A stretch of 59,740 bases of DNA, filler included, from Nitrospinae bacterium RIFCSPLOWO2_12_FULL_45_22 (GCA_001803565.1; 4 parts of 4 records of this genome joined end to end with filler, not necessarily neighbours in it), one strand, 5' to 3'; numbered from the whole stretch's first letter, positions 68-57,595 are shown. Translations and numbers: made by a program. The notes: a model not told the origin generated them from the letters alone.

Positions 68-187
68 AGCAAGGCTTATCGTAAGACGTTAGGGGTAAGG
101 CGTGAGTAGAAATTTTTCTTACCCCTTACCCTCTTACTCCTTACCCCTCACGGTTGATTTGGCTGAAAGCTGATGGCTGAGCGCTCA
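68..187. repeat. Composite heptamer inverted-repeat element A (GTAAGGN / CCTTACN arms plus a GCTGANN arm)
   Basis: gtaagac gttaggg gtaaggc gtgagta ... ttacccc ttaccct cttactc cttaccc ctcac, then gctgaaa gctgatg gctgagc; overlaps the folD 3' end. Confidence 0.85.
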
Positions 188-1013
188 CTTGCAGCTTATA
201 AGCCGTTAGGGTATTTTTGAGGAGCATAGTTACGGTTAGAGGCCCAACCCCTCCTGGCACCGGGGTGATGTAGGAGACTTTATCCAGGACATTATCAAAG
301 TCTACATCACCCACGGTCTTCCCTTCTTTAAAGCTTATACCTATATCTATTACTACTGCCCCTGGTTTGACCATGTCCCGGGTTATCAGGCCAGATTTTC
401 CTACCGCACTAATCAGAATATCCCCCTCCCTGGTCACATAGGCTAATTCTTTGGTATATTTATGACAAACGGTCACGGTGGCCCCTTTATTTAGCAGCAA
501 TAAGGATAAGGGTTTACCTACAATATAGCTACTACCCACAATAACTGCATGCCGGCCAGCTATGGGGATGCTATTCCTTTCCAAAAGCCCCATTACTCCT
601 AATGGTGTGCAGGGTACTAAACCAGGATTAGCAGAGAAGAGCCGCGCTACATTATAGGGATGGAACCCGTCAACATCTTTAAGCCAGGAGATAGCCTCAA
701 TAACCCTGGATTCTCTGATATGTTCCGGTAAAGGTAGTTGTACCAATATACCATGAACATTTTGGTTTCCGTTGAGGTGCTGAATGATGCTAAGTAGGTT
801 ATCTTCCGGGATATCGCTGGGTAGGGAATAAGAATATGAGGCAATACCTACTTCTTCACAGGCCTTCTTTTTGTTCCTTACATATACCTGAGAAGCAGGG
901 TCTTCACCAATAAGGATAACGGCCAGGCCCGGGGGCTCAGGATAATGCTGGATTTCTTGCCTTATCTCTTCTCTTATCTGATCAGATAGCTCTTTGCCGT
1001 ATAAGATCGCCAC
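141..1013 (-). CDS. folD: Bifunctional methylenetetrahydrofolate dehydrogenase/cyclohydrolase
   Basis: Motifs ASQVYVRNKKKAC, GILVQLPLP, KDVDGFHP, PCTPLG, ITPVPGGVGPLT; GTG start. Confidence 0.97.
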   Translation of the reverse strand: MAILYGKELSDQIREEIRQEIQHYPEPPGLAVILIGEDPASQVYVRNKKKACEEVGIASYSYSLPSDIPEDNLLSIIQHLNGNQNVHGILVQLPLPEHIRESRVIEAISWLKDVDGFHPYNVARLFSANPGLVPCTPLGVMGLLERNSIPIAGRHAVIVGSSYIVGKPLSLLLLNKGATVTVCHKYTKELAYVTREGDILISAVGKSGLITRDMVKPGAVVIDIGISFKEGKTVGDVDFDNVLDKVSYITPVPGGVGPLTVTMLLKNTLTAYKLQVSAQPSAFSQINREG

Positions 1014-1020
1014 CGGGTCT

Positions 1021-1506
1021 TTATCTATTATAATGAAATGCCAGGTTCTGCCCTACTTCTTCAACTAATTCCTTCATAGCAAAAGGCTTCAGGATAAAAC
1101 CATCTGCCCCTTTACTAAGGGCATTTGCCCTTTCATCCTCGATCTTATCCCCACACATACCATAACTAGCCAGGATAATAGCCCTGGTCTGAGGATACTC
1201 CCTCTTTATATGGCGCAATAGTTTATAGCCGATATGTTCTTCTTGAATCTCCGGCAAGCAGCCTTTGATCTGTTCGGCCAATTGCCTTGATTCATAATCA
1301 CCACAGACAGAGATGTCTAATTCTAAGATGGCCAGATCAATCCTTTTAGTCCTAAAGAGTGCCAGCGCCTCTTCTGGATCACGGGTGCCCGCTACCGCAT
1401 ATGCTGCCTCCGGGTAAGTAAGCCCCAATAGTTCTTCTAAAGGCTCCATAAGTTTAGATGCCTGGCTATCCACCAACAAAACCTGAGTTTTTCTATCTAA
1501 CTTCAT
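1021..1506 (-). CDS. Stand-alone atypical response-regulator receiver domain
   Basis: VLLVDS...IDLAILEL...IILASYG...GADGFILKPF receiver pattern; phosphoacceptor position is Glu. Confidence 0.8.
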   Translation of the reverse strand: MKLDRKTQVLLVDSQASKLMEPLEELLGLTYPEAAYAVAGTRDPEEALALFRTKRIDLAILELDISVCGDYESRQLAEQIKGCLPEIQEEHIGYKLLRHIKREYPQTRAIILASYGMCGDKIEDERANALSKGADGFILKPFAMKELVEEVGQNLAFHYNR

Positions 1507-1528
1507 GCCCTCTAACCTCCTGATCAGA

Positions 1529-1714
1529 AGCTTTCAGTTGTCAGCAGTCAGTTTTCAGCCAAATCAACCGTGGGGCGTAAGGAGTAAAAAATCCGTAAGT
1601 CGTAAGGCGTGAGGAGAAATTCTTTTTACCCCTAACGCCTAACGCCCTCACGCTTTGTCCCTAACGGCTTACGATAAGTCTTGCTGATCGCTGAATGCGG
1701 AATGCTGACCGCTT
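1529..1714. repeat. Composite nested heptamer inverted-repeat element B, an inverted homologue of element A
   Basis: Outer arms tcagttg/tcagcag/tcagttt ... gctgatc/gctgaat/gctgacc; inner arms cgtaagg ... cctaacg/cttacg; 1553-1572 is the exact reverse complement of 149-168. Confidence 0.85.
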
Positions 1715-2220
1715 ATATTTAACCCTTCCAGCTCCAGTAGCCTCTTCTTTATCTCTACTCCGCCGGAATATCCTCCTATTTTACCATCAGAGCGGATTAC
1801 GCGATGGCAGGGGATAATGAGAGGGATGGGATTCTGCCCATTGGCTTGACCAACAGCCCGTTGGGCATAGTCTGATCCTATTTGTTGCGCTATCTCCTGA
1901 TACGACCTGGTATGGCCATAGGCAATCTTCTTAACCTCTCCCCATACTCGCCTCTGGAATGGTGTTCCTTGAGAGATGTCTAGCTCATACCCGGCAAACT
2001 CCTTCCTTTCGCCAGCCAGATAAGATAAGATACTCCTTTTTAGCTCTTTTCCTGACCCTGGGTCTTTAACTGTATGGGCTTTGAGGCGCTCCTTGAGCTT
2101 TTGACAAAACTCTTCCTCTCCTCGGTCATTCAATGATAACTGACATATACCCGTTGGAGAAAAGGCCATATATATCATACCAATAGGGGAAGCGAAATAA
2201 TTGTAATACACCCTTTTCAT
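1669..2220 (-). CDS. ogt: Methylated-DNA--protein-cysteine methyltransferase
   Basis: GTPFQRRVW, RAVGQANGQNPIPLIIPCHRV active-site motif; ATG at 2220 preceded by GGAGGT. Confidence 0.95.
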   Translation of the reverse strand: MKRVYYNYFASPIGMIYMAFSPTGICQLSLNDRGEEEFCQKLKERLKAHTVKDPGSGKELKRSILSYLAGERKEFAGYELDISQGTPFQRRVWGEVKKIAYGHTRSYQEIAQQIGSDYAQRAVGQANGQNPIPLIIPCHRVIRSDGKIGGYSGGVEIKKRLLELEGLNISGQHSAFSDQQDLS

Positions 2221-2345
2221 TATTAGACCCACCTCCTTACGGTTTATAATAGTCCGTGGGACAAACCATGTCAAATGGTAAAATGAGATGAGTATATGAC
2301 AAATGCCCAGAGATGAATGTTACGAAACATTAGCGGGAAATTTCC

Positions 2346-2374
2346 TTGACAACCCTAAAAACGATAGCTATAAT
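2346..2374 (+). promoter_or_regulatory. Sigma70-type promoter of the yceD-rpmF-fab operon
   Basis: Perfect TTGACA-N17-TATAAT ending 43 nt upstream of the yceD ATG. Confidence 0.85.
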
Positions 2375-2417
2375 CACCCATTCATTGATAAGTCCTCTGC
2401 CAAGAGGTGAGTAGCAG

Positions 2418-2963
2418 ATGAGTAATTTTTGGCTGGATGTAGCAGATTTACCCCAGGGTGGTCGGAAACTACAATATGTCTTTGATTTCAAGGGCTTAAA
2501 TAAGAGACTGGGTGATGTGAAGCTGGCTGCCCCAGTAGACTTTCACGGAGAGGTATATAAGTTTAATGAACAGGTTATCCTGAAGGGGGAGATATCATCG
2601 GTTTTAAGGCTGAGCTGTAGTCGCTGTCTGGAATCCTTTTCCTACCCTTTCCAGTCAGAATTTGTCCTGGATTATTTCCCAAAGGAAGAGGAGCTTCTAG
2701 AAGAAGAGAAAGAACTGGGAGAGAAAGATTTAATCGCCTCTCATTATACTAATAACCGAATTGACCTGTCAGCTACAGTAAGAGAGCAGATATTTTTGTC
2801 TATCCCGATAAAACCTTTATGCCTACCCCAGTGTAAGGGTTTATGCCTCGAGTGCGGCTCTAATCTAAATGTTTCTCATTGTGATTGTTTTACTGAGAGA
2901 ATAGATGATCGGTTATCAGTGCTAAAAAAATTAAAGGTAGAATTAAAAGAAAATAAAAAGTGA
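2418..2963 (+). CDS. yceD: DUF177/YceD family protein
   Basis: CSRCL and PLCLPQCKGLCLECGSNLN motifs; conserved position before rpmF. Confidence 0.92.
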   Translation: MSNFWLDVADLPQGGRKLQYVFDFKGLNKRLGDVKLAAPVDFHGEVYKFNEQVILKGEISSVLRLSCSRCLESFSYPFQSEFVLDYFPKEEELLEEEKELGEKDLIASHYTNNRIDLSATVREQIFLSIPIKPLCLPQCKGLCLECGSNLNVSHCDCFTERIDDRLSVLKKLKVELKENKK

Positions 2964-2975
2964 GAATGGATTAAG

Positions 2976-3158
2976 ATGGGAGTACCAAAGAGAAAAACTT
3001 CTAGAGCCAGGCGAGATAAACGTCGGACCCATAAAAAACTCCGGGTACCTAATATAACTCTCTGCCCCCAATGTCAGGAAGCGAGACTACCCCATCAGGT
3101 TTGCCTTAGCTGTGGCTTCTATGATGGGAAGCAGGTTCTAGAAGTCAAAGAAGGTTGA
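2976..3158 (+). CDS. rpmF: 50S ribosomal protein L32 (Zn-ribbon type)
   Basis: MGVPKRKTSRARRDKRRTH...CPQC...PHQVCLSCGFY. Confidence 0.97.
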   Translation: MGVPKRKTSRARRDKRRTHKKLRVPNITLCPQCQEARLPHQVCLSCGFYDGKQVLEVKEG

Positions 3159-4240
3159 AGATGAATGTCGCAGTTGATGCAATGGGTGGTGACTATGCCC
3201 CAGCGGCAGTAGTAGAAGGGGCGGTTTATGCCGCTAGAGAGGCCGGCCTCGCTATCACCCTGGTAGGCGATGAAAAGAGGGTCTTAGAAGAACTCAAGAA
3301 ATTTCCTCACGATAATCTCCTGATAACTATTAAACCCGCTTCCGACGTGATTGAGATGGGAGAGTCCCCTTCTTTAGCCTTAAGGAGAAAGAAGAATTCT
3401 TCCATAAAGGTAGCTATGGAATTGGTTAAATCGGGAGAAGCTGCAGCGGTAGTCAGCGCTGGCAATACTGGGGCAATCCTGGCTTCATCTATTATGATCC
3501 TTAAACCATTAAAAGGGATAGAGAGACCTACCCTGGCTAGCTTTCTTCCTACAGCCAAAAGCGGTCAGATGACTATATTGGTGGATGCAGGGGCTAATGT
3601 AGATTGTAAAGCCCATAAATTGCTTCAATTCGGCATAATGGGCCATGCTTATGCTCAATACATTTTGGATAAAGAGTCTCCTAAAATAGGGCTTTTAAGT
3701 ATAGGAGAAGAAGATAACAAGGGCAATGAAGCATCTAGAGAGGCATTCCAATTGTTTAACCGCTCCGGCCTTAATTTTATCGGTAATGTGGAGGCTAAGG
3801 AGGTCTTTCGGGGGACAGCCGATGTGCTGGTTTGCGATGGTTTTACCGGCAATATAGCCCTGAAGATCGGCGAAAGCCTGGCCGAGATGTTTATTAGTGC
3901 TATAAAGGGGGCCTTTTCCAGGAATCTCTTTTCTAAAATGGCTTATTTCTTTATGAAGACCCCTTTTCAGGAGCTCAAGGCAAAAATAGATTATTCTGAG
4001 TATGGTGGCGCCCCTCTGCTGGGCATTAACGGTATATGTATCATTGGTCATGGTAGCTCTTCCTCTAAGGCCATAAAGAATGCCATAATATTAGCCGCTC
4101 GGTTAGCAGAAAAAGACTTGAATGCCCGCATAAGCCAGGAGATAACCTCTCGTCTCGGTATCCAAACTGTCCCGGGGAAAAAATCGGCCTTTTTAAGCTG
4201 GATCAGACCATATCATCAGGGAGAAAAAGAAAACCTATGA
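3155..4240 (+). CDS. plsX: Phosphate acyltransferase
   Basis: AVDAMGGDYAP, VSAGNTGA, DAGANVDC, VCDGFTGN, YGGAPLLG. Confidence 0.97.
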   Translation: MKMNVAVDAMGGDYAPAAVVEGAVYAAREAGLAITLVGDEKRVLEELKKFPHDNLLITIKPASDVIEMGESPSLALRRKKNSSIKVAMELVKSGEAAAVVSAGNTGAILASSIMILKPLKGIERPTLASFLPTAKSGQMTILVDAGANVDCKAHKLLQFGIMGHAYAQYILDKESPKIGLLSIGEEDNKGNEASREAFQLFNRSGLNFIGNVEAKEVFRGTADVLVCDGFTGNIALKIGESLAEMFISAIKGAFSRNLFSKMAYFFMKTPFQELKAKIDYSEYGGAPLLGINGICIIGHGSSSSKAIKNAIILAARLAEKDLNARISQEITSRLGIQTVPGKKSAFLSWIRPYHQGEKENL

Positions 4241-5220
4241 TAAATGCAAAGATATTTGGGGTAGGATCTTATTGCCCGGAGCCGATTTTGGCCAATAAAG
4301 ACTTAGAAAATATAATAGAAACTACTGATGAATGGATCGTATCAAGAACCGGTATCAGAGAAAGGCGGGTCGCCCCTAAAGAAGAGATTACCTCTGACTT
4401 AGCCTTCAAAGCCTCTGAAAGGGCCTTAGCAGATGCTGGTATCAGTGCAGAAGAATTAGACCTGCTCATACTAGGCACTACTACACCAGATATGATCTTC
4501 CCCTCCACTGCTTGCTTTGTTCAGGCAAAGCTAGGGGCAAACAAGGCCGCCGCCTTCGACCTGGCAGCTGCTTGTTCCAGCTTCATCTATGCCCTGTCAG
4601 TAGCTAATAGTTTTATCAAAACCGGCTCTTACCGTACTATCATGGTCATCGGTGTGGAAATAATGACCCGGATAGTAGATTGGACTGATAGAAATACCTG
4701 TATATTATTTGGCGATGGGGCAGGGGCGGCTGTGCTAAAGAGGGCGGAGGATAATTCTAGCGGTATACTCTCGACCCATATCTATAGTGATGGTAATTAC
4801 ACTAAACATCTATATGGGCCGGGAGGTGGCACCCTTCATCCCGCCAGTCACGAAACCGTTGACCAGAGGCTCCATTTTATTAAGATGAATGGTAATGAGA
4901 TTTATAAAGGGGCGGTGAAGGCCATGACAGAAGCAGCCAGAGAAGCCCTTAGTTATAACAACCTCCAACCAGAGAATATAGACCTCTTCATACCCCACCA
5001 GGCCAATCGCAGGATTGTGGATGCGGTAGTAGAGAAATTACAAATATCTGTAGGAAAAACCTTTATCAATGTAGAAAAGTATGGCAATACCTCTTCTGCC
5101 TCTATCCCTATTGCTTTAGATGAAGCGGTAAAACAGGGTAGGATCAAAAAGAATGATTTAGTCTTGCTGGCCTCTTTTGGTGCAGGGTTTACCTGGGGCT
5201 CAGCCCTAATCAGGTGGTAA
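4237..5220 (+). CDS. fabH: 3-oxoacyl-ACP synthase III
   Basis: AACSSF, DRNTCILFGDGAGA, PHQAN, YGNTSSASIP, FGAGFTWG. Confidence 0.97.
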   Translation: MINAKIFGVGSYCPEPILANKDLENIIETTDEWIVSRTGIRERRVAPKEEITSDLAFKASERALADAGISAEELDLLILGTTTPDMIFPSTACFVQAKLGANKAAAFDLAAACSSFIYALSVANSFIKTGSYRTIMVIGVEIMTRIVDWTDRNTCILFGDGAGAAVLKRAEDNSSGILSTHIYSDGNYTKHLYGPGGGTLHPASHETVDQRLHFIKMNGNEIYKGAVKAMTEAAREALSYNNLQPENIDLFIPHQANRRIVDAVVEKLQISVGKTFINVEKYGNTSSASIPIALDEAVKQGRIKKNDLVLLASFGAGFTWGSALIRW

Positions 5221-5228
5221 TTTCTCTT

Positions 5229-6179
5229 ATGATAAAGACCAGATTATGTGACCTTTTGGGCATAGAATATCCTATTATCCAGGGGGGTATGGCCTGGGTA
5301 TCTACCGCAGAGCTGGCTGCCGCCGTATCAGAAGCAGGGGCGCTAGGAATCATTGCTGCGGGAAATCTCACGGCTGAAGAAGTCCGAAAAGAGATCAGGA
5401 AGGCTAAAGAACTTACCCAAAAACCCTTTGGGGTAAATGCCCTCCTTTTATCACCTTTTATTGAGGAGGTTATGGCGGTAATTATAGAAGAAGGGGTAGA
5501 GGTAGTAGCGACCGGGGCAGGCAATCCCGGCAAATATATCCCTGGACTAAAAGAAAAAGGGATCAAGATAATACCACTAGTAGCCTCGGTAGCGTTAGCT
5601 AAACGCCTGGAGCGACAGGGAGTAGATGCTGTGGTAGCAGAAGGGATGGAGTCCGGGGGCCACATCGGGGAAGTTACTACCATGGCCTTGGTACCCCAAA
5701 TAGCCCAGGCCCTTAAAATACCGGTCATAGCAGCCGGAGGTATCGCTGATGGTCGGGGTATAGTAGCAGCGTTGGCCTTAGGGGCTCAAGGAATACAGAT
5801 GGGATCTAGATTTGTCTGTTCGGTCGAGTGTACTGCGCACTCAGCATTTAAAGAATTCTACCTTAAAGCAAAGGATAGGGATACAGTGGTCACAGGATAT
5901 TCCACTGGTCATCCAGTAAGGATATTGAGAAATAAACTCTCGCGCGAATTTGAACGACTGGAAAGAGACGGGGCCTCACCAGAAGAATTGAATAAATTAG
6001 GGGAAGGAAAACTCAAGGCAGCAGCCGTTGATGGAGACATCGAATATGGGTCAGTGATGGCTGGCCAGATTGTGGGCTTGATCGAAGACATATTACCGGT
6101 AAAAGAGATAATACAGAAGTTAACCCAGGAGGCTGGCGAAATCATAAAATCCTTACCCCAGAATCTTATTAAGACGTAA
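5229..6179 (+). CDS. fabK: Enoyl-ACP reductase II (FMN-dependent)
   Basis: YPIIQGGMAWVS, EGMESGGHIGE, AAGGIADGRG, TGHPVR, MAGQIVG; located inside the fab operon. Confidence 0.92.
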   Translation: MIKTRLCDLLGIEYPIIQGGMAWVSTAELAAAVSEAGALGIIAAGNLTAEEVRKEIRKAKELTQKPFGVNALLLSPFIEEVMAVIIEEGVEVVATGAGNPGKYIPGLKEKGIKIIPLVASVALAKRLERQGVDAVVAEGMESGGHIGEVTTMALVPQIAQALKIPVIAAGGIADGRGIVAALALGAQGIQMGSRFVCSVECTAHSAFKEFYLKAKDRDTVVTGYSTGHPVRILRNKLSREFERLERDGASPEELNKLGEGKLKAAAVDGDIEYGSVMAGQIVGLIEDILPVKEIIQKLTQEAGEIIKSLPQNLIKT

Positions 6180-6256
6180 TTAGGTTAATAGGTCATCGGG
6201 TCACCAGGGGATTAGGTAACCTAATAACCCAATGACCCAATAACCCTATAACCCTA
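6180..6256. repeat. Octamer inverted-repeat element C between fabK and fabD
   Basis: ttaggtta ataggtca tcgggtca ... ttaggtaa / cctaataa cccaatga cccaataa ccctataa. Confidence 0.8.
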
Positions 6257-6260
6257 TAAT

Positions 6261-7208
6261 ATGACCATAAAAAAGATTGCCTTTATCTTCCCCGGTCAAG
6301 GTTCGCAATATGTAGGTATGGGGAAAGATTTTTTTGCTGCCTATCCGATAGCTAAAGAGCTCTTCTCTCAAGCTAATGCGATACTTGGATACGACATGGC
6401 AAAGCTATGCTTTGAAGGGCCAGAAGAAGAGCTAAGGTTAACTATCAATACTCAACCCGCTATCTTCTTAAATAGCCTGGTAGCTCATAGGATACTGGAA
6501 CAGGAAGGAATTCGACCGCAGATGGTTGCGGGCCATAGCCTGGGAGAGTATTCGGCCTTAGCAGCCGCTAACACTATTGGCTTTGCCGAGGCACTAACTT
6601 TGGTTAGGAAGCGGGGTCAGTTGATGCAAGAGGCTGTGCCAGCAGGTAAAGGGGCTATGGCTGCTATTATGGGCCTTGATACTCAAGCCGTGGAAAAGGC
6701 CTGCGCGAAGGTGAGTAATAAAAATAATGTTGTCCAGATAGCTAATTATAATTGTCCGGGCCAGGTAGTAATCTCTGGAGAGAAAGAAGCGGTAGAAGAG
6801 GCTATGGCTTATACTAAAGAGCTGGGGGCTAAAAGAAACCTCCCTTTGCCTGTTAGCGCTCCTTTTCATTGTCCGCTCATGGAGCCAGCCGAAGAAGGAC
6901 TCCTGGCTGAACTGGAAAAGATACCATTCAAGGACCCCTCCTTCCCTATTGTAGCCAATCTCAAAGGAGAGGCAGTATATACCGGTATAGCAGCTAAAGA
7001 AGCCTTAAAGAGGCAGATAACTTCACCGGTAAGATGGGAAGAGTCTATGCGGTATTTGTTGAGCCAGGGGATAGAGGCCGTAGTAGAAGTAGGCCCGGGC
7101 CAAGTCCTTTTAGGATTGCTGAAGAGGATAGACAAAGGAGTTATCGGGTTAGGGGTAGAAGGCACGGCTAGCTTGCAAAAGACTCTGCAAGCCTTAAAGG
7201 CCAGGTGA
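6261..7208 (+). CDS. fabD: Malonyl-CoA:ACP transacylase
   Basis: FPGQGSQYVGMG, TQPAI, GHSLGEY, ANYNCPGQ, VSAPFH. Confidence 0.97.
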   Translation: MTIKKIAFIFPGQGSQYVGMGKDFFAAYPIAKELFSQANAILGYDMAKLCFEGPEEELRLTINTQPAIFLNSLVAHRILEQEGIRPQMVAGHSLGEYSALAAANTIGFAEALTLVRKRGQLMQEAVPAGKGAMAAIMGLDTQAVEKACAKVSNKNNVVQIANYNCPGQVVISGEKEAVEEAMAYTKELGAKRNLPLPVSAPFHCPLMEPAEEGLLAELEKIPFKDPSFPIVANLKGEAVYTGIAAKEALKRQITSPVRWEESMRYLLSQGIEAVVEVGPGQVLLGLLKRIDKGVIGLGVEGTASLQKTLQALKAR

Positions 7209-7336
7209 TTAGGTCATTACGTTATTACGTGATTCCGTCATTGGGTTATTAGGTCATTGGGTAATTAAATCACCCAATAACGTAGTGACCCAATGACCTA
7301 ATCACCGTTGTTGCTGAGGGCTGATTGCTGAAGGCT
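7204..7336. repeat. Octamer inverted-repeat element D plus an orphan GCTGANN heptamer arm between fabD and fabG
   Basis: 7204-7218 ggtgattaggtcatt is the exact reverse complement of 7292-7306; 8-nt periodicity in the arms; gctgagg gctgatt gctgaag at 7313-7336; contains the fabD TGA. Confidence 0.85.
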
Positions 7337-7342
7337 TGAGAT

Positions 7343-8083
7343 ATGGTATTGGAAGGACAAGTAGCGATAGTTACGGGTGCAGCCCAGGGGATCGGTCGGG
7401 CTATTGCCCAGACATTGATCCAGGAGGGGGCTAATATTGTCCTCTCTGATATAAACCTTCCTAAGGCGGAAGAGACTGCTCAAGAGATCAGCGCTCTGGG
7501 TAGTGAAGTATTGGTTATTAAGGCCGATGTAGCAATACCTGAAGAGGCAGAACAGTTAGTCCATAGGGCTTTGGAGAAATGGGCTAGAGTAGATATCCTG
7601 GTAAATAATGCTGGTGTCACTAAAGATGCCCTGGTACTGCGGATGAGAAAAGAGGACTGGGATTATGTCCTAAATATTAATTTAACCGGCACTTTTAATT
7701 GTACTAAGGCATCAGTAAAGCCCATGATGAAACAGCACCGGGGTAAGATTGTCAATATATCTTCTGTAGTAGGGGTTATGGGGAATGCCGGGCAGAGCAA
7801 TTATGCTGCCTCTAAGGCCGGGATAATTGGCCTGACCAAATCCCTTGCCCGCGAGTTAGCTCCCAGGAACATAAATGTTAATGCCATTGCCCCGGGGTTT
7901 ATTGATACCGATATGACCCGGGGGTTACCGAAAGAAATAAAGGATAATATGATGAGCCAAATACCTATGGGCAGATTAGGTATACCGGAAGATATCGCTC
8001 ATTGTGTAAAGTTCTTGGTCTCAGAAGAGGCCAGTTATATAACCGGGCAGGTTATCCATGTAAACGGCGGGATGTATACCTAG
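7343..8083 (+). CDS. fabG: 3-oxoacyl-ACP reductase
   Basis: TGAAQGIG, NNAGVTKD, GNAGQSNYAASKAG, PGFIDTDMT, YITGQVIHVNGG. Confidence 0.97.
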   Translation: MVLEGQVAIVTGAAQGIGRAIAQTLIQEGANIVLSDINLPKAEETAQEISALGSEVLVIKADVAIPEEAEQLVHRALEKWARVDILVNNAGVTKDALVLRMRKEDWDYVLNINLTGTFNCTKASVKPMMKQHRGKIVNISSVVGVMGNAGQSNYAASKAGIIGLTKSLARELAPRNINVNAIAPGFIDTDMTRGLPKEIKDNMMSQIPMGRLGIPEDIAHCVKFLVSEEASYITGQVIHVNGGMYT

Positions 8084-8102
8084 ATAAGGAGGTGAGGATA
8101 AA

Positions 8103-8339
8103 TTGGCCACGATAGAAGAGAGGGTTATAAATCTTATTGTAGAGCAGTTGGGGGTTAGTCAAGATGAAATAACCTCAGAAGCCTCGTTTATTGAAGACCT
8201 GGGGGCAGATTCTCTGGATACGGTAGAATTAGTCATGGCTTTTGAAGAAGAATTTGATATAGAAATTCCAGATGAAGAGGCCGAAAAGATCGTGCGGGTT
8301 AAGGATGCCATCAATTACATCAAAACCCATGCTTCTTAG
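8103..8339 (+). CDS. acpP: Acyl carrier protein
   Basis: [23 protein letters not shown] start after AAGGAGGTGA. Confidence 0.97.
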
Positions 8340-8489
8340 TTAAACCCTAAATCCTAAATAAAGTCAAATGACCCGTGACCTTTAACCGTGAGGCCTAGCC
8401 AACGGACACGAAACACGGACACGGAGTTTTGAGATTTGGATTTAGAATTTTGATATTGTTTCGGATTTAGTGCTTAGGATTTAGAATTT
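8340..8489. repeat. Nested repeat element E between acpP and fabF
   Basis: Outer aaaccct aaatcct aaa ... tttgga tttagaa ... tttcgga tttagtg cttagga tttagaa; inner ccgtga..ccgtga / cacgaaa cacgga cacgga. Confidence 0.8.
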
Positions 8490-8564
8490 GTCAGCCGGGC
8501 TTGCTTTCATTAAATGTGACATTGTCAGGTTGAAGAAACAGAAATGATAAAGGGGTGATTTTTT

Positions 8565-9806
8565 CTGAAGCGAAGAGTAGTAGCAACTGGATTGGGCTTA
8601 GTAACTCCTGTAGGTACTGGCTTGCAGAAGGTGTGGGAAGCTATCTGCCAGGGGCAATCCGGTATAGATAAGATAACACGTTTTGATACCAGTGATTTCC
8701 CTTGCAGGATTGCCGGTGAAGTACGAGATTTCAATCCAGAAGACTATATTGATAAGAAAGAAGTCAAAAAGATGGATATCTTTATCCACTATGCCTTAGC
8801 GGCTGCTAGTATAGCTATGGCAGATGCTGGATTGAAGATCAGCGAAGAGCTAGCCGATAAGGCGGGAGTAATAGTGGGTGTGGGTTTAGGGGGGTTACCG
8901 GCATTGGAGCGGTATCATATTCTCCTGCAGGAAGGGGGGCCAAAAAAAATATCTCCTTTTTTTATCCCAATGATGATAGCTAATCTGGCCGCCGGGCAGG
9001 TATCTATCCACTTTGGTTTCAAAGGACCAAATTCTTGTGTAACTACGGCCTGTGCGGCTGGAGCGCATGCCATAGGGGATTCTTTGCGGCTGATCCAACG
9101 GGGTGAGGCCGAGGTTATGATAGCCGGTGGGGCAGAGTCAACTATTACTCCTTTAGCATTAGGTGGTTTTTGTGCTATGAGGGCATTAACCTTCAGGAAT
9201 GATACCCCGCAAAAGGCCAGCCGGCCCTTTGACAAAGACCGGGATGGTTTTGTCATGGGAGAGGGTGCCGGTATCCTTATATTAGAAGAGTTAGAGCACG
9301 CCTTGAGAAGGAAAGCCCGGATATATGCCGAGCTAGTAGGTTATAGTCTCTCCGCCGATGCCTATCATATTACCATGCCCGATCCAGAAGGAGGCGGGGC
9401 AGCCCGCTGTATGCAAGGGGCCTTAAAGGACGGAAATTTGCTACCCGAGGAGATAGATTATATAAATGCCCATGGCACCTCTACTCCCCTAAATGATAAA
9501 CACGAAACCATGGCCATAAAGAAGGTATTCGGAGAACATGCCTATAAATTAGCCGTCAGTTCTACTAAATCCATGACCGGCCACCTCCTGGGAGCGGCCG
9601 GGGGTATAGAGGCCATCTTTTCCATCCTCACTATCTATAATGGAATCCTCCCCCCAACTATTAACTATGAGACCTCAGACCCAGAGTGTGACCTGGACTA
9701 TGTACCCAATAAAGCCCGGAAGGCCGAGGTACGAACTGTGCTATCCAACTCCTTTGGGTTTGGCGGAACCAATGCCTGTTTGATCATTAAGCGCTTTGAA
9801 GGATAG
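8565..9806 (+). CDS. fabF: 3-oxoacyl-ACP synthase II, probable CTG start
   Basis: [52 protein letters not shown]; conserved N-terminus [10 protein letters not shown] begins at CTG 8565, upstream of the called TTG at 8592. Confidence 0.95.
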
Positions 9807-9813
9807 GGCCTAA

Positions 9814-10536
9814 ATGATCCTCCAAGAAGATAGGAAGCAGGCCCTGGAGCTATTTCAGCCCTTACTGGGTTATCATTTCAAGGACTTAGCTCTATTAAAT
9901 AATTCCCTGACCCATAAATCCTTTGCTCATGAGCAGGGAGAAGAGACCCAGGATAACGAAAGATTAGAGTTCCTGGGAGATACGGTACTCAATCTGATTA
10001 TTAGCCATTATCTACTGGATAAATTCCCTCATTATGCCGAAGGGGATCTAACCAAGATACGGGCCGCTATCGTCAATAACATCAGCCTGGCCAGAATGGC
10101 CCAGCAGATACAGTTGGGTGATTTTATCCTCTTGAGTAAGGGGGAGGAGCGCAGTGGTGGCCAGCATAAGCCTTCTATCCTGGCGGGCTGTCTTGAGGCC
10201 CTAATAGCAGCCCTTTATTTAGAAGTGGGCCTGGAGAAGGCTTCCAGTATCTTTTTTCACTGTTGGCAAAATAGGATAGAAGAGATTATTATCAGCAATG
10301 GGTCAGAAGATTATAAGAGTATTCTCCAGGAATTTATCCAGCGGGAATTGGCCTGCATGCCTGTCTATCAAGTGGTAGGTGATAGTGGGCCAGAGCACCG
10401 GAAAATGTTTGAAGTAGTACTAAGTATTAAGGGCCAGATATATAGCAGCGGTACAGGCCGGAGCAAAAAGGAGGCTGAACAAGAAGCAGCTATGCTGGCC
10501 TTAGAAAGCTTCCAGAAAGAAAGCCCCCCCTTTTAA
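9814..10536 (+). CDS. rnc: Ribonuclease III
   Basis: NERLEFLGDTVL signature; C-terminal dsRBD (DYKSILQE...GPEHRKMF...GRSKKEAEQEAA). Confidence 0.96.
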   Translation: MILQEDRKQALELFQPLLGYHFKDLALLNNSLTHKSFAHEQGEETQDNERLEFLGDTVLNLIISHYLLDKFPHYAEGDLTKIRAAIVNNISLARMAQQIQLGDFILLSKGEERSGGQHKPSILAGCLEALIAALYLEVGLEKASSIFFHCWQNRIEEIIISNGSEDYKSILQEFIQRELACMPVYQVVGDSGPEHRKMFEVVLSIKGQIYSSGTGRSKKEAEQEAAMLALESFQKESPPF

Positions 10537-10584
10537 AGCCCGGCATTATCACCTTCTTCATGCCCCGGATGGAAAGGGGCGTAA

Positions 10585-11490
<906 letters not shown>

Positions 11491-11491
<1 letters not shown>

Positions 11492-13140
11492 TGATTATGG
11501 CAGACGAGGCAGTTGTAAGCAACTATGCTGGAATAAGTTTTTATGAAGAGAAGGGGCGTTATAGTGGACTCCTCTCCTGGGTTTTTTCAACTAACCACAA
11601 AAGGATCGGGTTGCTTTACCTGATTTCCATGCTCACTTTCTTCGCCACTGGCGTATTCCTCGGGTTATTGCTGAGACTGGAATTAATTGCACCCGGGAAA
11701 ACAATTATGGAACCCCAAACCTATAATGCAATCTTCACCCTCCATGGGGTAATAATGATATTTTTGTTTATCATACCCGGGCTGGCAGCGCCTTTTGGAA
11801 ATTTTTTCCTGCCCATACTGATAGGGGCAAAAGATGTATTCTTCCCCAGGCTGAACCTGCTCTCCTGGTGGCTTTTTATCAGTGGGGCAATTTTGGCCAT
11901 AATATCTCTTTTCACTCGTGGTGGACCCATTGATACCGGCTGGACGTTCTATGCGCCATACAGCATCAAGACTGGGACAAATGTTTCTCTGGCCGTTTTT
12001 GCCGTATTTCTTATTGGTTTTTCCTCAATACTTACCGGGCTGAATTTCCTGACAACAATACACCGGCTCAGGGCACCAGGGATGAAGTGGCTCCGCTTAC
12101 CACTTTTTGTCTGGTCCCTCTATGCCACGGGTTGGATACAGATTCTTGCCACGCCAATTATAGGTATTACCTTGTTGCTGGTAATACTAGAAAGATTTTT
12201 CGGGGTCGGATTCTTTGATCCGGCTAAGGGTGGCGACCCCATATTGTACCAGCATCTATTCTGGATATATTCGCACCCCGCAGTCTACATTATGATCATC
12301 CCTGCGATGGGCGTCATCTCTGAAATAATCCCTGTTTTTGCCAGAAAAACAATTTTTGGGTACAAAGCCATTGCCTTTTCCAGCCTTGCCATAGCGCTGG
12401 TAGGGTCTTTAGTATGGGGGCATCATATGTTTGTCAGTGGACAAAGTTATACCGCCGACTGGATTTTCTCTTTGCTTACTTTTCTAGTTGCAATACCAAG
12501 CGGGATAAAAGTTTTTAACTGGGTAGCGACCTTATATAAGGGCTCCATAGAACTCGCAACCCCTCTTCTATATGCCCTTTCGTTTATTTTTCTATTCTCT
12601 ATTGGTGGACTATCCGGGGTAATCCAAAGCGCCTTAGCAGTAAATGTACATCTGCACGATACCTATTGGATTGTTGCCCATTTTCACTACGTAATGTTTG
12701 GGGGGGCAGGGTTTGCCTTTTTTGCTGCTTTGCATCATTGGTTCCCGAAGATGTTTGGCAGGATGTATAACAGAAGGCGGGCAAAATGGGCCTGGTTTAT
12801 TCTATTCATCGGCTTTAACACCCTCTATCTCCCTATGTTTATCCTTGGGTGGCAGGGTATGCCCCGGAGATATTATGACTACCTCCCACAATTTCATACT
12901 GGACATTTGATTTCTACTATCGGTTCCTGGATACTTGTCTCAGGTCTGATTTTAATGTTTGCTAATTTAATCCATGCCTTTTTTAAGGGTGTAAAAGCAG
13001 ATAATAATCCCTGGGGTGGCTCTACCCTGGAATGGCAGATAGCATCTCCGCCGCCGCCAGACAATTTTGACCAGATACCACTGATAGAACATGGGCCTTA
13101 TATATTTGGGACGCAGATTTTCGCAGATTCACGCGGATAG
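11491..13140 (+). CDS. ctaD: Cytochrome c oxidase subunit I, type A2
   Basis: HKRIG, TLHGVIM, GWTFYAP, WIYSHPAVY (YS motif), VWGHHMF, HDTYWIVAHFHY, GMPRRY. Confidence 0.96.
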
Positions 13141-13280: not shown

Positions 13281-13320
13281 GGGCAATTCCTATGCTATGA
13301 ACTTAAAGGAAGGCGCTAAA

Positions 13321-14300: not shown

Positions 14301-14309
14301 GGCTAGGTC

Positions 14310-45462: not shown

Positions 45463-46342
45463 TCTGAGAAAATCCATCTTCCTTACTCCCGTAATCATTA
45501 CCTTCTCTATTTATTTGATCCTTTTCTTTACCACCAGGGCGGACCCCTGGGGATTAGAGACCCACAAGGTAGTTAATGATCTGGCCTGTGAGACGCTGCC
45601 TCCCTCACCCCTAAAGACTTTCTTCATTATCCATAAAGAATATATCTCTGAGCATGCGACGGACCCGGATATAGCCCTCAGAGAGCTTTATGGTGCCGAG
45701 GAAGGGGTAAAGCACTTTATCAACCTCGATGCTTATGGCCCATTCCCCTTTAAAGAGCTACCCAGAGATTATCAGCAGGCGGTTAAAAAGTTTGGCCGAA
45801 AAATGATCCAGCAGGAAGGCATCTTACCCTGGTGGATCATTTGGTCACAACAAAGATTGCAACGGGCTATGGAACAAGGAGACTGGAAGGGAGTGCGGCA
45901 GAGAGCCAGTCATCTAGGACATTATGTAGCAGACCTATTTATGCCCCTCCATACTACTGCTAATTATGATGGTCAACTGACGGGCAATGATGGTATCCAT
46001 AAACGGCTGGAAGATAGCCTGGTAGATGCCCGGATAGAACAGTACCGGGTAGAAATGAGGAAGCAGCTTAAAAAAACCTCTCCAGAAATGGTTAGGGTAG
46101 AGGATATTTTTGGTTATTCCTTAAAGGGTTGGTTAATAGTAGAAACCATTTTAGAAAATGATCGTCAGGCTAACAAGGAGATATTAGGGTTTTTCAGTAT
46201 TAAGGGGTTTTATTATCAACGGCTGGATAGAAGATTAAAACCTATCATAATAAGGCAATTGGTGGAGGCCTGCCAGCTCTTAGGCAATATCTGGTATTCT
46301 AGCTGGCTCCAGGCCGGCAAACCTGCCCCCATTATTAAGTAA
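45440..46342 (+). CDS. S1/P1 nuclease / Zn-dependent phospholipase C family exported protein
   Basis: Signal-like segment then WGLETH, ATDPD, HFINLD, LGHYVADLFMPLHTTANYDG, GIHKRLE. Confidence 0.85.
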   Translation: MWKGSRISLRKSIFLTPVIITFSIYLILFFTTRADPWGLETHKVVNDLACETLPPSPLKTFFIIHKEYISEHATDPDIALRELYGAEEGVKHFINLDAYGPFPFKELPRDYQQAVKKFGRKMIQQEGILPWWIIWSQQRLQRAMEQGDWKGVRQRASHLGHYVADLFMPLHTTANYDGQLTGNDGIHKRLEDSLVDARIEQYRVEMRKQLKKTSPEMVRVEDIFGYSLKGWLIVETILENDRQANKEILGFFSIKGFYYQRLDRRLKPIIIRQLVEACQLLGNIWYSSWLQAGKPAPIIK

Positions 46343-46409
46343 GGAGTAAGGAGTGAGCCGTGAGTAGTTAACGACTGACGGCTCACTTCCTCACTGTTTA
46401 CTTACTGAC
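46339..46409. repeat. Heptamer inverted-repeat element J between convergent genes (possible bidirectional terminator)
   Basis: gtaagga gtaagga gtgagcc gtgagta / gactgac ggctcac ttcctcac; gtgagccgt pairs with acggctcac; contains the nuclease TAA. Confidence 0.75.
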
Positions 46410-52675: not shown

Positions 52676-52775
52676 NNNNNNNNNNNNNNNNNNNNNNNNN
52701 NNNNNNNNNNNNNNNNNNNTTAATTAATTAANNNNNNNNNNNNNNNNNNNNNNNNNNNNNNNNNNNNNNNNNNNN
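52676..52775. other. Artificial contig linker
   Basis: 100 nt of N with TTAATTAATTAA. Confidence 0.97.
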
Positions 52776-55186: not shown

Positions 55187-55199
55187 TAGGAGGCTAGCA

Positions 55200-55607
55200 A
55201 TGGAAGGAAAGAAAAATATTAGGGTGCTCTTGTCCAAGAGTGACCAGGATGCTCATGAAGTTGGTATAAGGTATGTGGCCAGCTCTCTTAAGGATGCGGG
55301 AATGGAGGTGATTTTCACCAGATACACAATCATAGATGAAGTAGCTGAGACAGCCTTACAAGAAAATGTGGATGTTATAGGATTGAGTTTCTATGGTGCC
55401 GGCTTGAGGTATGATATACCAAGGTTGATGGAACTTTTAAAAGAGAGAAATATAGAGGATACAAGGGTCCTAGTTGGTGGGACAATAACAGAACAAGAAA
55501 AGGCCGAATTGCTGAAGACCGGTATTAGAGGGGTTTTTACTCCAGGCAGCGGTTCAGTACAAGGTATTGTCAACTTTATAACCTCTAACATCTATGGAAC
55601 GGGATAA
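55200..55607 (+). CDS. Cobalamin-binding mutase small subunit 2
   Basis: DAHEVG (DxHxxG), DAGMEVI, VDVIGLS, LVGGTI, GVFTPG; AGGAGG SD before ATG 55200. Confidence 0.92.
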   Translation: MEGKKNIRVLLSKSDQDAHEVGIRYVASSLKDAGMEVIFTRYTIIDEVAETALQENVDVIGLSFYGAGLRYDIPRLMELLKERNIEDTRVLVGGTITEQEKAELLKTGIRGVFTPGSGSVQGIVNFITSNIYGTG

Positions 55608-55673
55608 ACCTTGATTAGATAGCTAAAGATTTACCCAAATTGGGGTGCACTACAAAGAAAAGGAGGATCAGCT

Positions 55674-57383
55674 ATGTTCAGCAAAAAAGTAGAGGATGAG
55701 AACAAGATCATGGAGGAAGAATGGGAAAAGCAATATTCTATAATGATGGATAAGTTGAAAGCCATTAATAGATCAGGCATTGAGCTTAAGCCTTCTTATA
55801 CCCCTACGGATATCCAAGGGATGGACTATAAGGATATAGCACTACCTGGGCAATATCCTTTTACCAGGGGGAATTATCCTTTTCATTATCAGGTCATGCC
55901 CTTGATGATGATGCACGGTTATGGTTTTGGTACTGCAGAGGAGACCCTCATGAGGAGGGAGTGGCTTTCGAGACTGGGGAGTCGCCTGAAGGTGGGCACT
56001 GAAGATGACCTTACAGTGTGTATATTTACCATGGATCTGCCCACCCAGAGGGGCTATGACCCTGATGAACCAGGGGCAAGGGGAAGAGTGGGAGACTGTG
56101 GGATGTCCCTGAGCACCATCAAGGACATGGAGGCGATCTTTGAAGGATTACCTTTGGAGAAGGTTCTTACAACCTTTATTGGATTCGATGCCAGCATGAT
56201 CCTTGTTGCTCTGTATGCAGCTTACTGTAAATATATCAGGAAGGAGCCATTGGATAAATTATACATGCTGTGCTGTAATCTCTTTCATCACCAATGGTTC
56301 TGGGATAGTGCTGCATTTCCCCCTGAGACAGCCATGAAACTGGAGACAGAGTTTGTAAAGTTCATAGTGGAAACCTGCCCCATGTCTTATCCCGGGGTTG
56401 TGGATGGTTACAATGTTGCTGAGGCGGGGGCAACCCCAGTGCAGGAAGCTGCCTTTTCCATTGTCGCTGCAGTGAGTCTAATGGAGGAGTGTGTAAAGGC
56501 AGGTCTTGATCCTGACAAGGTAGCTTCCAGATTTATCGGCCATCCCCATATCAGTCTCAATTTCTTTGAGGAGATAGCAAAGTTAAGGGCCATGAGGAAA
56601 GTATGGGCTAAGATATTAAAAGAGAGGTTTGGCTGTAAAAGGCCCGAATCCCTTCAGCTAAAGTTCCTTGATGCCCAGACAGCGGGCTTTGACCTTACCG
56701 CTCAGGAGCCCCTCAATAACATTATAAGAACTACCATCATGGCCCTGGCAGGCATGCTGGCGGATGTAGAAGGTATGTGGGTTTCCTCCTATGATGAGGC
56801 CCTGGGTATTCCCACTGAAGAAGCAGTCCAGGTAGCTGTCAGGACTTACCAGATCCTCCATGAAGAGACAGACATACCCCATGTTACCGATCCCTTGGGG
56901 GGCTCTTATTATATAGAGTGGCTTACTACCAGGATGGAAGAGGAAATCATGGGGTTAATGAAGAAGATGGAAGACCTGGGAGGATACATGAAGTGCTGGC
57001 AGACGGGCTGGATAAGACAACAGGTGGAGAAAAGTGCCAATGAGAGGCTTAAAAAATTGAATGAAGGAAAGGAAGCAAAGATAGGAGTGAACAAATATAG
57101 GATTGAAGAGGTACCGAAGATGACTGCCTTCAGGGTTCCACCTGAGGTAGAACTCAAGGCTATAGAAAGGGTAAAGAAATACAGGCAGGGGAGGGACAAT
57201 TCCAGGGTTGAATCTGCTCTGGCAAAGGTAAAGGAGGCAGCTATTGCCATAGATAGAGATTGGCCCAGATCCTGTGGAGTACTCATGCCTGCCTTAATTG
57301 AGGCTGCCAGGTGTGAGGCCACTGCCGGGGAGATGCACCGTATCCTTAGAGATATTTTTGGATTTGGCTATTATTCAGGTTAA
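55674..57383 (+). CDS. AdoCbl-dependent acyl-CoA mutase large subunit 2 (paralogue of 53048-54760)
   Basis: PGQYPFTRG, DLPTQRGYD, FFEEIAKLRAMR, QTAG..LTAQEPLNNIIR, SYDEALGIPTE; both paralogues end FG(Y/F)G(F/Y)YSG. Confidence 0.92.
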   Translation: MFSKKVEDENKIMEEEWEKQYSIMMDKLKAINRSGIELKPSYTPTDIQGMDYKDIALPGQYPFTRGNYPFHYQVMPLMMMHGYGFGTAEETLMRREWLSRLGSRLKVGTEDDLTVCIFTMDLPTQRGYDPDEPGARGRVGDCGMSLSTIKDMEAIFEGLPLEKVLTTFIGFDASMILVALYAAYCKYIRKEPLDKLYMLCCNLFHHQWFWDSAAFPPETAMKLETEFVKFIVETCPMSYPGVVDGYNVAEAGATPVQEAAFSIVAAVSLMEECVKAGLDPDKVASRFIGHPHISLNFFEEIAKLRAMRKVWAKILKERFGCKRPESLQLKFLDAQTAGFDLTAQEPLNNIIRTTIMALAGMLADVEGMWVSSYDEALGIPTEEAVQVAVRTYQILHEETDIPHVTDPLGGSYYIEWLTTRMEEEIMGLMKKMEDLGGYMKCWQTGWIRQQVEKSANERLKKLNEGKEAKIGVNKYRIEEVPKMTAFRVPPEVELKAIERVKKYRQGRDNSRVESALAKVKEAAIAIDRDWPRSCGVLMPALIEAARCEATAGEMHRILRDIFGFGYYSG

Positions 57384-57401
57384 CTGCTACGTTGTTATGG
57401 T

Positions 57402-57595
57402 GTAACTATTCAGGCACAAAGAGACAAAGGCACATAGGCACAAAGTTCTAGGAATACGATCGGAATGTAGGACACAACCTATCCAAATACCGTTTTTGTA
57501 AACATCTTATGGGAAGTTAAGCAGCTCATTCTCTTCAGTTCTCTCGACTTTGTGCCTTTGGTGCTCTGTGCCTTTGTGCCTACCTGAATAGTTAC
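57402..57595. mobile_element. MITE-like element K: 13-bp perfect TIR, internal octamer arms, probable 7-8-bp target-site duplication
   Basis: gtaactattcagg ... cctgaatagttac; ggcacaaa gagacaaa ggcacata ggcacaaa / ctttgtgc repeats; flanked by GTTATGGt (57394-57401) and GTTATGGa (57596-57603). Confidence 0.8.

Follow-up and report, generated by a model that had tools for sequence, protein, structure and literature searches.

The DNA analysed here (the window, 59,740 nucleotides) consists of several contigs of one metagenome-assembled genome (MAG), Nitrospinae bacterium RIFCSPLOWO2_12_FULL_45_22, joined end to end, and it contains eleven hairpin elements between positions 68 and 57,595. These hairpins, and at least 163 loci of the same kind across the genome, are probably gene-less, decaying copies of small hairpin-bounded cassettes, whose stem would be cut by RNase III once in RNA. 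A complete cassette consists of a promoterless gene of about 110–140 codons between two inverted arms, each a tandem array of short units. There are two classes: one encodes a four-helix-bundle protein and has mostly 7-nt units, the other encodes a GxxExxY nuclease and has units of 8–10 nt. Arms and gene travel together into unrelated contexts, across phyla, and arms change in length by whole units. The same arm families occur with a complete gene, with a truncated one and with none. The genome comprises 321 contigs (given below as C and a number) totalling 3.67 Mb, has 45% G+C and is 85% complete.

Cargo genes and their arms

A first-pass annotation of the window had taken the hairpins for deleted remnants of gene cassettes and had associated similar arms with four-helix-bundle (TIGR02436/PF05635) and GxxExxY genes. 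Full-length versions with a cargo gene are indeed found in this genome. Nine genes match PF05635 (four-helix bundle, the 23S rRNA intervening-sequence protein), all above the Pfam cut-off, and the three proteins tested against the NCBIfam model TIGR02436 score 100.9–110.5 bits (cut-off 24). PF13366, the GxxExxY nuclease profile, has twelve matches; five are near full length and seven cover only the last third of the profile. The nuclease examples tested against TIGR04256 (NCBIfam) score 136.8 and 155.9 bits, with a cut-off of 35. Reading of the flanks revealed that inverted arrays of short units hug almost every cargo gene, the unit differing between cassettes. With a threshold of 12.5, the top arm score in shuffled controls of GxxExxY loci, arms were detected at eight of the nine four-helix-bundle genes and four of the five full nuclease genes. 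This association is thus borne out here and, as described below, in many other phyla. All twelve cassettes that have an open reading frame (ORF) within 260 nt on each side are co-oriented with both neighbours. The eleven window elements and the 14 full cassettes sit in protein- or tRNA-gene spacers, not in 23S rRNA, and none of the window elements carries a four-helix-bundle gene. We note that one four-helix-bundle cassette (C129, 154–510) lies in a tRNA spacer, with tRNA-Ser(gct) downstream at 565–657 and, judged by eye, an apparent 3′ half of another tRNA upstream, cut by the contig start. The context of this cassette is a stable-RNA operon, like that of the intervening sequences (IVSs) of rRNA.

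The arms of individual cassettes recur throughout the genome. Those of the four-helix-bundle gene on C124, which belong to the family of the window hairpins at 6180–6256, 7204–7306 and 39828–39912, are found at 43 further places, of which 31 are short hairpins. The arms of C67 recur at 30 places (16 hairpins) and nuclease arms of the CACAAAG type at 15–30.

The nuclease of C8 was compared with species-representative genomes, and 80 of the 164 relatives found, spread over more than 12 phyla, were surveyed. Arms above the top shuffled control flank 53 of the 77 evaluable GxxExxY loci and are periodic at 31 of these; a recount using the true stop codon gave 52 loci with arms, 29 of them periodic. 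Of 151 genomes sampled from different families, 58 have PF05635 genes. Bacteroides thetaiotaomicron, a member of a control set, also matched PF05635. At 21 of 28 evaluable four-helix-bundle loci of other genomes the arms score above 12.5, and 20 are periodic. The C8 nuclease shares 74–80% amino-acid identity with five foreign copies, from MAGs labelled Nitrospinae, Nitrospirota, Planctomycetota and others. In an alignment of these cassettes the homology is bounded by the outer ends of the arms, where a short terminal inverted repeat precedes the unit array; the sequences beyond are unrelated. As homology is limited to arms and gene, the gene plus its arms is the unit of transfer. No GxxExxY match was found among 50,697 phage records; eight plasmid records, mostly very large replicons, contain one. 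Two foreign GxxExxY loci are examples of arm expansion and cassette decay. In L133 the left arm contains a perfect five-fold 8-nt expansion, and units of the same orientation stand downstream in place of the complementary arm; in L137 the gene is frameshifted near its 3′ end.

Unit length follows cargo, being (mostly) 7 nt with the four-helix bundle and 8–10 nt with the nuclease. The periods of four-helix-bundle arms in other genomes are 7 (16 loci), 8 (2), 9 (1) and 6 (1); those of nuclease arms are 9 (17), 10 (7) and 8 (5), with none at 7. Divided into periods of at most 7 and at least 8, the four-helix-bundle loci split 17:3 and the nuclease loci 0:29 (Fisher p 2e-10, an overstated value because the relatives are not independent). 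The cassettes of this genome agree with the rule. The arm units are 77–94% identical (32–47 aligned columns) where third codon positions are only 40–49% identical, although repetitiveness inflates alignability and the columns over which the flanks aligned were too few for use as controls. The 5′ arm is the purine-rich one at 126 loci against 32 in this genome and at 46 against 3 foreign nuclease loci; for non-periodic repeats the figures are 190 and 127. Since a palindrome reads alike on both strands, the purine-rich 5′ arm is a property of the architecture. It places Shine–Dalgarno-like runs just ahead of the cargo start.

The upstream neighbour lies on the cargo strand at 60 of 71 foreign loci, and the downstream neighbour at 35 of 62, which is the baseline (36 of 62). 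The cassette therefore lies 3′ of a transcribed gene, the position that a gene lacking its own promoter would require. No target-site duplication was observed: at the 163 loci, with boundaries shifted by up to 3 nt, the longest flanking direct repeat has a distribution equal to that in permuted flanks. Nor do the nuclease-class arms contain a single conserved motif, the commonest 4-mer being present in 24 of 52 arms.

Purifying selection acts on the nuclease, whose ratio of nonsynonymous to synonymous substitution (dN/dS) is about 0.1 (0.088–0.124 in the six pairs unsaturated at synonymous sites; the other four pairs are saturated). Its D..ExK catalytic motif is invariant in 38 sequences and the GxxExxY motif is intact. 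A sequence comparison with the PDB gave no match for the nuclease. The AlphaFold2 (AF2) model has a predicted local distance difference test score (pLDDT) of 94.7 and matches Cas4 SSO0001 best (template-modelling score, TM, 0.62 across some 100 columns); weaker matches include folds of the RecB family, of lambda exonuclease and of Hjc (Holliday-junction resolvase). The GxxExxY cargo is a minimal Cas4/RecB-like PD-(D/E)XK nuclease. The PF05635 profile matches the pentameric structures 2gsc and 2rld.

Hairpin loci in the genome and in the window

Inverted-repeat loci were collected with our own detector, which starts from an 8-mer seed, requires arms to be 20 nt or longer and no less than 72% complementary, and allows loops of up to 260 nt; arms were called tandem if their period score for periods 5–11 was 0.65 or higher. 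The detector merges nested elements. It returned 701 loci, 163 of them with tandem-periodic arms, the latter number being a lower bound because gapped or short-armed elements are overlooked. Two block-wise Markov shuffles, which keep first-order composition within 300-nt blocks, gave 247 and 245 inverted-repeat loci, of which 5 and 6 were tandem-armed. The periods of the 163 loci are 7 nt (80 loci), 8 (54), 10 (14), 9 (8), 11 (5) and 6 (2). Genes were called by a greedy ORF proxy (2897 ORFs, 83.6% coding), in which start codons are uncertain. By this proxy, 153 of the 163 loci are less than 50% coding and six lie wholly within an ORF; non-periodic inverted repeats are evenly split (167 of 350 less than 50% coding). 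The tandem-armed loci are more numerous than expected by chance. Applied to 677 kb of unrelated loci the detector found 12 sites, about five of them convincing, which corresponds to 18 per Mb against 44 per Mb in this genome.

The flanking genes of the 142 tandem-armed loci that could be classified are oriented ++ in 63 cases, −− in 54, −+ in 15 and +− in 10. This mirrors the genome baseline (1061, 1016, 241 and 258, respectively), and there is therefore no terminator-like excess between convergent genes. The start of the locus falls within −30 to +10 nt of the upstream stop codon at 41 of 113 loci. At 23 of the 163 loci one hairpin is nested in another, each arm pair measuring 20 nt or more; usually the arms of 8–11-nt period are outside and the hairpins of 6–8-nt period inside. 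The composite at 13108–13280 in the window has at least seven near-full copies that share outer and inner arms, which indicates that a nested composite, once formed, disperses as a unit. At 13153 a single 7-nt unit is missing from contigs of two other samples that are anchored in unique flank. The metagenome runs that contain DNA of this organism are from groundwater, soil and sediment.

The lineage is isolated. One genome of the same order is found among the species representatives, and the other 29 of the 30 relatives sampled are related at domain level only. The same-order genome has no match to the 13108 composite and no PF05635 hit; being 68% complete, its absences weigh little. A scan of metagenomes with FabD gave nothing above 53% identity.

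All eleven window elements fold as long imperfect hairpins, with minimum free energies of −27.5 to −71.0 kcal/mol over 71–194 nt, and their arms are tandem units of 7–10 nt. Tandem Repeats Finder (TRF) reports short-period arrays (periods 6–16) in ten, the exception being 13108–13280. A repeat search gives inverted pairs in seven of the eleven among the 25 pairs listed, and our detector at strict settings recovers eight. By blastn against the genome nine elements are multi-copy, on 4–37 contigs at 75–94% identity; 10585–10712 and 15238–15360 are single-copy. No Rfam family matched in the window at gathering thresholds. The elements occupy stop-to-start spacers, and several provide the final codons or stop of the host gene. 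Three (1529–1714, 13108–13280 and 39787–39953) are nested. The shared architecture, the unit sequences named for the families, the placement at or across stop and start codons inside the fab and cox operons, and the nesting had all been described in the first-pass annotation and could be reproduced, including the positions relative to genes.

The genes of the window are ordinary: folD, a response regulator, ogt, yceD-plsX-fabH-fabK-fabD-fabG-acpP-fabF-rnc and an SCO1-like gene, followed by ctaD-ctaE-coxIV-coxII-ctaB, a polysaccharide cluster, groES/EL and methylmalonyl-CoA mutase genes. The contigs are joined artificially by N runs around TTAATTAATTAA at 15806–15905, 39548–39647 and 52676–52775, across which no feature can be read; 58907–58949 is a plain N run.

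The element at 68–187 is a composite hairpin in which an inner hairpin of 7-nt units (GTAAGGN, core 87–152) lies next to one half of an outer arm of the TCAGC type. The element covers the final ~16 codons and the stop (141–143, minus strand) of folD, folds at −37.1 kcal/mol, and has an inverted pair, a TRF period of 7 and 25 blastn high-scoring segment pairs (HSPs) on 21 contigs. Between the response-regulator gene and ogt, the nested composite at 1529–1714 combines outer TCAGCNN arms with inner GTAAGG-type hairpins. The 3′ end of ogt (stop 1669–1671, minus strand) is overlapped, so that the final ~16 codons of ogt are element sequence; the fold is −64.4 kcal/mol, the detector match is 1540–1709 and there are 27 HSPs on 19 contigs.

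Three elements lie in the fab operon. The hairpin at 6180–6256 has 8-nt units of the TTAGGTCA/GGGTTATT family (43 HSPs on 22 contigs) and spans the fabK–fabD spacer, from directly after the fabK stop (6177–6179) to 4 nt before the fabD ATG (6261). Units of this family also flank the four-helix-bundle gene of C124. The fabD ATG directly follows a pyrimidine-rich 3′ arm (...AACCCTATAATATG) at 6240–6263, and no Shine–Dalgarno-like run is present there. The element at 7204–7336 begins with a hairpin of 8-nt units of this family (7203–7306) and continues into a TCAGC-type stretch. The fabD stop (7206–7208) is within its first unit and the fabG ATG is 6 nt past its end; it folds at −60.0 kcal/mol, with four inverted pairs and 64 HSPs on 37 contigs. 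Upstream of fabF, and beginning 1 nt after the acpP stop (8337–8339), the hairpin at 8340–8489 has 7-nt units (AAATCCT), an inner array at 8402–8425 and 29 HSPs on 22 contigs. Read depth peaks at this element in four metagenome runs.

Outside any element, the host RNase III gene rnc occupies 9814–10536 on the plus strand (Pfam Ribonucleas_3_3, Ribonuclease_3 and dsrm). The spacer from rnc to the SCO1-like gene contains 10585–10712, a hairpin of 10-nt units (ACACGAATGA) whose arms are of the nuclease class. It has a loop of 68 nt, three inverted pairs, a TRF period of 10 and a fold of −31.4 kcal/mol, and is one of the two elements single-copy by blastn. The element at 13108–13280 is a three-layer composite. 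Its outer arms have 10-nt units (CGCAGAT type, nuclease class), its inner hairpin (13144–13227) has 7-nt units of the AGTCAG type, the ctaD stop (13138–13140) is inside it and ctaE starts at 13267. One inverted pair is listed and there are 25 HSPs on 18 contigs, including the near-full composite copies. A small hairpin of 20 nt (13250–13269) sits in its right outer arm. Hairpins of 20–25 nt are inserted in arms or loops of some copies of this family and missing from others (e.g. C257:2915–3014, 6639–6725), which suggests a further, smaller layer of insertable elements. The single-copy hairpin at 15238–15360 has AGGATACAG-type units (TRF period 14) and a fold of −35.4 kcal/mol. It is located shortly after the coxII stop (15228–15230), before or within the 5′ end of the ctaB frame; in the long ctaB frame the UbiA domain begins only at residue 61.

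In the nested composite at 39787–39953, outer 8-nt CACAAAG arms (nuclease class) enclose an 8-nt hairpin of the GGTCATTA family (39828–39912). A distance of 12 nt separates its end from the stop of the gene 39965–41020 (minus strand), and it has two inverted pairs, a fold of −58.1 kcal/mol and 31 HSPs on 22 contigs, with two near-full copies. The hairpin at 46339–46409, of 7-nt units (GTAAGGA/GTGAGC), lies between convergent genes: the stop of the ORF 45440–46342 is in its first unit and the groEL stop 10 nt beyond it (one inverted pair, −35.5 kcal/mol, 12 HSPs on 11 contigs). Between methylmalonyl-CoA mutase and molybdopterin oxidoreductase genes, 57402–57595 is a hairpin of 8-nt units (GGCACAAAG, nuclease class) with three inverted pairs, a fold of −71.0 kcal/mol and one full-length copy (86% identity) on C50. 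No gene remnant was detectable in its 100-nt loop, and its contig (C286) has no PF13366 match. Two tandem arrays about 150 nt apart, at 18434–18484 (9-nt, CGCCACAAA-like) and 18614–18645 (7-nt, GACTGAC), have no complementary partner and may be lone arms or a rearranged element.

Other repeats occur in the same genome. A separate family of GTAG-tagged palindromes (examples are C34, C11:22221–22450 and C81:13645–13820) includes GTAGTGG plus palindrome in 33 copies and GCAGGCTnnAGCCTGC in 27. There are five matches to Y1_Tnp, the transposase of REP-associated tyrosine transposases (RAYTs; REP, repetitive extragenic palindrome) and of the IS200 type, e.g. at C282:6629–6952, C37:2469–2714 and C49:7499–7822; the Y1 gene of C49 sits between GTAG-tagged palindromes. 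These palindromes and Y1 genes look like a classical REP/RAYT system that coexists with the tandem-armed hairpins and is sometimes nested in them. A conserved tail of about 30 nt (AAAATGAAAATTCCTATnCnATnAAnTTA) is present at 46 places, after the 3′ arm of several hairpin families and of GTAG palindromes (to the right of 13280 in the window; C12:1170, C174:20059, C247:5653). It is often part of a ~75-nt unit with TTAAATTA at both ends, and its orientation is opposite to both neighbours in 23 cases and the same as both in eight. The tail could be a target site, the outermost element layer or a host signal. The single reverse-transcriptase domain of the genome (C291:14072–14662) lies within an open frame of 1003 codons.

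Proposed mechanism and alternatives

By homology with the 23S IVSs, a cassette would be transcribed by read-through from the upstream gene and its arms would pair in the transcript, giving a long double-stranded stem. Host RNase III (9814–10536) would then cut the stem and free the cassette RNA. Such release would explain how the elements are tolerated, with little burden, within rRNA and in the spacers of operons and tRNA genes. It is conceivable, at a further remove, that the cargo proteins read their own arm units and carry out or guide the movement of the DNA, with neither a classical transposase nor target duplication. That the cargo proteins recognise the arms is the most attractive hypothesis, because unit length is cargo-specific and the units are conserved.

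Several observations weigh against reading the hairpins as RNA-processed cassette copies. Arms are undetectable at 24 of 77 nuclease and 7 of 28 four-helix-bundle loci elsewhere. For the GTAAGG, TCAGC, AAATCCT and AGTCAG arm families no gene-bearing copy was found in the 85%-complete assembly. No insertion polymorphism was seen; bridging contigs from four samples all carry the elements, in strains more than 99% identical. The protein of the Coxiella burnetii IVS is probably not translated, according to the report describing it (PMC4990558). The stems show no wobble strand bias (G·U 136 sense, 130 antisense; 122 loci), and among stem mismatches transitions are not enriched beyond about 38%. Compensatory change was found in none of 33 pairs in a seven-copy family, a comparison whose power is limited by low divergence. 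The gene-less copies are thus without a signature of selection on RNA structure, and look neutral and decaying. The term deleted remnants, used in the first-pass annotation, is partly supported: the arm families are shared with gene-bearing forms, but residual gene sequence is detectable in only 4 of the 163 short hairpins. The status of most hairpins as remnants is assigned because the arms are shared, not because of residual gene sequence.

The same absence of wobble bias and of compensatory change would suit a purely DNA-level explanation, in which non-autonomous palindromes are moved in trans by the nuclease or four-helix-bundle protein acting on hairpin or cruciform DNA, and the tolerance in operons is a selection filter. 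A 5′ arm that is purine-rich on either strand (126 vs 32; 46 vs 3), unit length tied to cargo class, arm units conserved past synonymous saturation, and a Cas4/RecB-like nuclease fold with Holliday-junction resolvases among its weaker matches are all consistent with this. We nevertheless consider it unlikely. The cargo is oriented like the gene upstream of it (60 of 71 foreign loci, 12 of 12 here), which would not be expected from a process confined to DNA; one of the two classes, the four-helix bundle, encodes no nuclease; neither a target-site duplication nor a target motif hints at the chemistry; and the homologous rRNA elements are demonstrably processed as RNA (PMC4990558). It is improbable that the hairpins serve the host as operon punctuation that gives neighbouring cistrons different mRNA stability or processing, as proposed for REP elements and bacterial interspersed mosaic elements (BIMEs) or for repeats of the enterobacterial repetitive intergenic consensus (ERIC) type, with the genes incidental. 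Their location within housekeeping operons (fab, cox), co-directional neighbours at 117 of 142 classified loci, and the 41 of 113 loci that begin within −30 to +10 nt of the upstream stop fit such a role. It is difficult to reconcile with many unrelated unit families sharing one architecture, with copies that decay without compensatory change, with the joint movement of arms and gene across phyla and with an orientation mix equal to the genome baseline. In addition, fabD-adjacent spacers in 27 loci of other lineages are short (median 15 nt, 37 of 47 at most 40 nt).

Ordinary terminators, RAYT-driven REPINs (hairpin-forming REP doublets) and purely local slippage were rejected. We give very little credence to REPIN-like repeats mobilised by the genome's Y1 (RAYT/IS200-type) transposases. 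The five Y1_Tnp matches and the abundance of palindromic repeats speak for them, but no tandem-unit arms are present at any of the three Y1 genes (of the five matches) whose flanks were inspected, the one Y1 gene between GTAG-tagged palindromes belongs with a separate repeat family, and the tandem-armed hairpins have no GTAG tag. Intrinsic terminators, or palindromes arising locally by slippage and without mobility, are scarcely credible. Stem-loops do occur at gene ends and unit number does vary by slippage; however, none of the 22 terminator-like sites in 1–15800 falls within the eight elements there, and convergent-gene loci (10, against a baseline share of 258 in 2576) are not in excess. 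The near-identical composite copies dispersed over many contigs already contradict this explanation.

It appears that decaying cassette copies, which would fold out of the transcript, best describe the hairpins. A bolder version can be offered tentatively, as possible but doubtful: both cargo proteins would be the machinery of transposase-free mobile elements, each reading its own units (7 nt for the pentameric four-helix-bundle protein, 8–10 nt for the nuclease) and mediating copying or insertion of the cassette downstream of transcribed genes, with RNase III clearing the transcript, and the 23S IVSs, the excess of bacterial heptamer repeats and both protein families of unknown function would belong to one element superfamily. 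If the cassette reading is right, it would explain the origin of ORF-bearing rRNA intervening sequences as well as the commonness and patchy cross-phylum sharing of heptamer and other short-period repeats, and would give a role to the very large TIGR02436 and TIGR04256 families. It would also point to DNA movement with neither target duplication nor a known transposase, and would suggest that folding out of the transcript is a general trick that makes selfish inserts harmless in operons. In practical terms, such hairpins break assemblies, lengthen predicted ORFs (folD, ogt, ctaD, ctaB) and mislead start-codon calls. A full-text literature search, with subscription journals largely outside it, gave no paper linking these proteins to hairpin cassettes. 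New here are the cargo-tied unit length, the purine-rich 5′ arms, the lack of target duplication, the purifying selection on the nuclease and the one-unit difference between strains.

Comparison with known systems

Integron cassettes are promoterless small genes expressed from outside, and their attC sites are imperfect inverted repeats conserved in structure rather than sequence. The cassettes described here resemble them in having a promoterless small gene and imperfect inverted repeats. They differ in that the gene lies between two arms, not beside one folded site, and in being scattered singly instead of arrayed at an integrase gene (no search for IntI was made). The Correia/NEMIS elements of Neisseria are hairpin-forming miniature inverted-repeat transposable elements (MITEs), co-transcribed with genes and cut by RNase III. 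Like MITEs, the present hairpins are short, multi-copy, intergenic, bounded by inverted repeats, related to longer gene-bearing forms and tolerated in operons. Unlike MITEs they have no target-site duplication, their arms are tandem arrays whose sequence differs per family, and the long forms encode a four-helix-bundle protein or a Cas4/RecB-like nuclease, neither of which is a known transposase. The REPIN–RAYT system is also similar, with a single gene flanked by inverted palindromic repeats and many gene-less palindromes of the same family; here, however, the cargo is not a Y1 transposase and there is no GTAG tag, and the GTAG set of this genome has its own Y1 genes.

Cyanobacterial short tandemly repeated repetitive (STRR) sequences are dispersed heptamer repeats. 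TAACTGA heptamer repeats have been described in Beggiatoaceae, Cyanobacteria and Bacteroidetes, and for their distribution 'no mechanism is evident' according to that report (PMC4679880). These repeats share with ours the intergenic tandem heptamers by start and stop codons and the patchy occurrence across phyla. They are mostly direct arrays with proposed regulatory roles, whereas here complementary pairs are tied to cargo.

The best-documented counterpart is the IVS in the 23S rRNA of Coxiella burnetii. Its terminal stem is 28 bp long, its ORF encodes an S23p four-helix bundle, and three tandem heptamers upstream of the ORF differ in number between strains (PMC4990558). Cleavage of the stem by RNase III was shown in vitro and by rapid amplification of cDNA ends (RACE); once excised, the RNA is labile, and a horizontal origin is suspected by the authors (PMC4990558). 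The elements here differ in several respects. They are located in mRNA and tRNA spacers rather than in 23S rRNA, are mostly gene-less, number in the hundreds and nest in one another. They include a second cargo class, the GxxExxY nuclease, with longer units, and RNase III cleavage, demonstrated for the IVS, is only inferred for them. The likenesses are a small four-helix-bundle gene in the loop of a long stem formed by terminal inverted repeats, tandem heptamers in the arm upstream of the ORF, a unit number that varies between strains, a sporadic distribution suggesting horizontal transfer, and a presumed position within a host transcript. On these grounds the ORF-bearing 23S rRNA IVSs (Coxiella burnetii helix-45, Leptospira) appear to be the closest known relatives of the cassettes described here.

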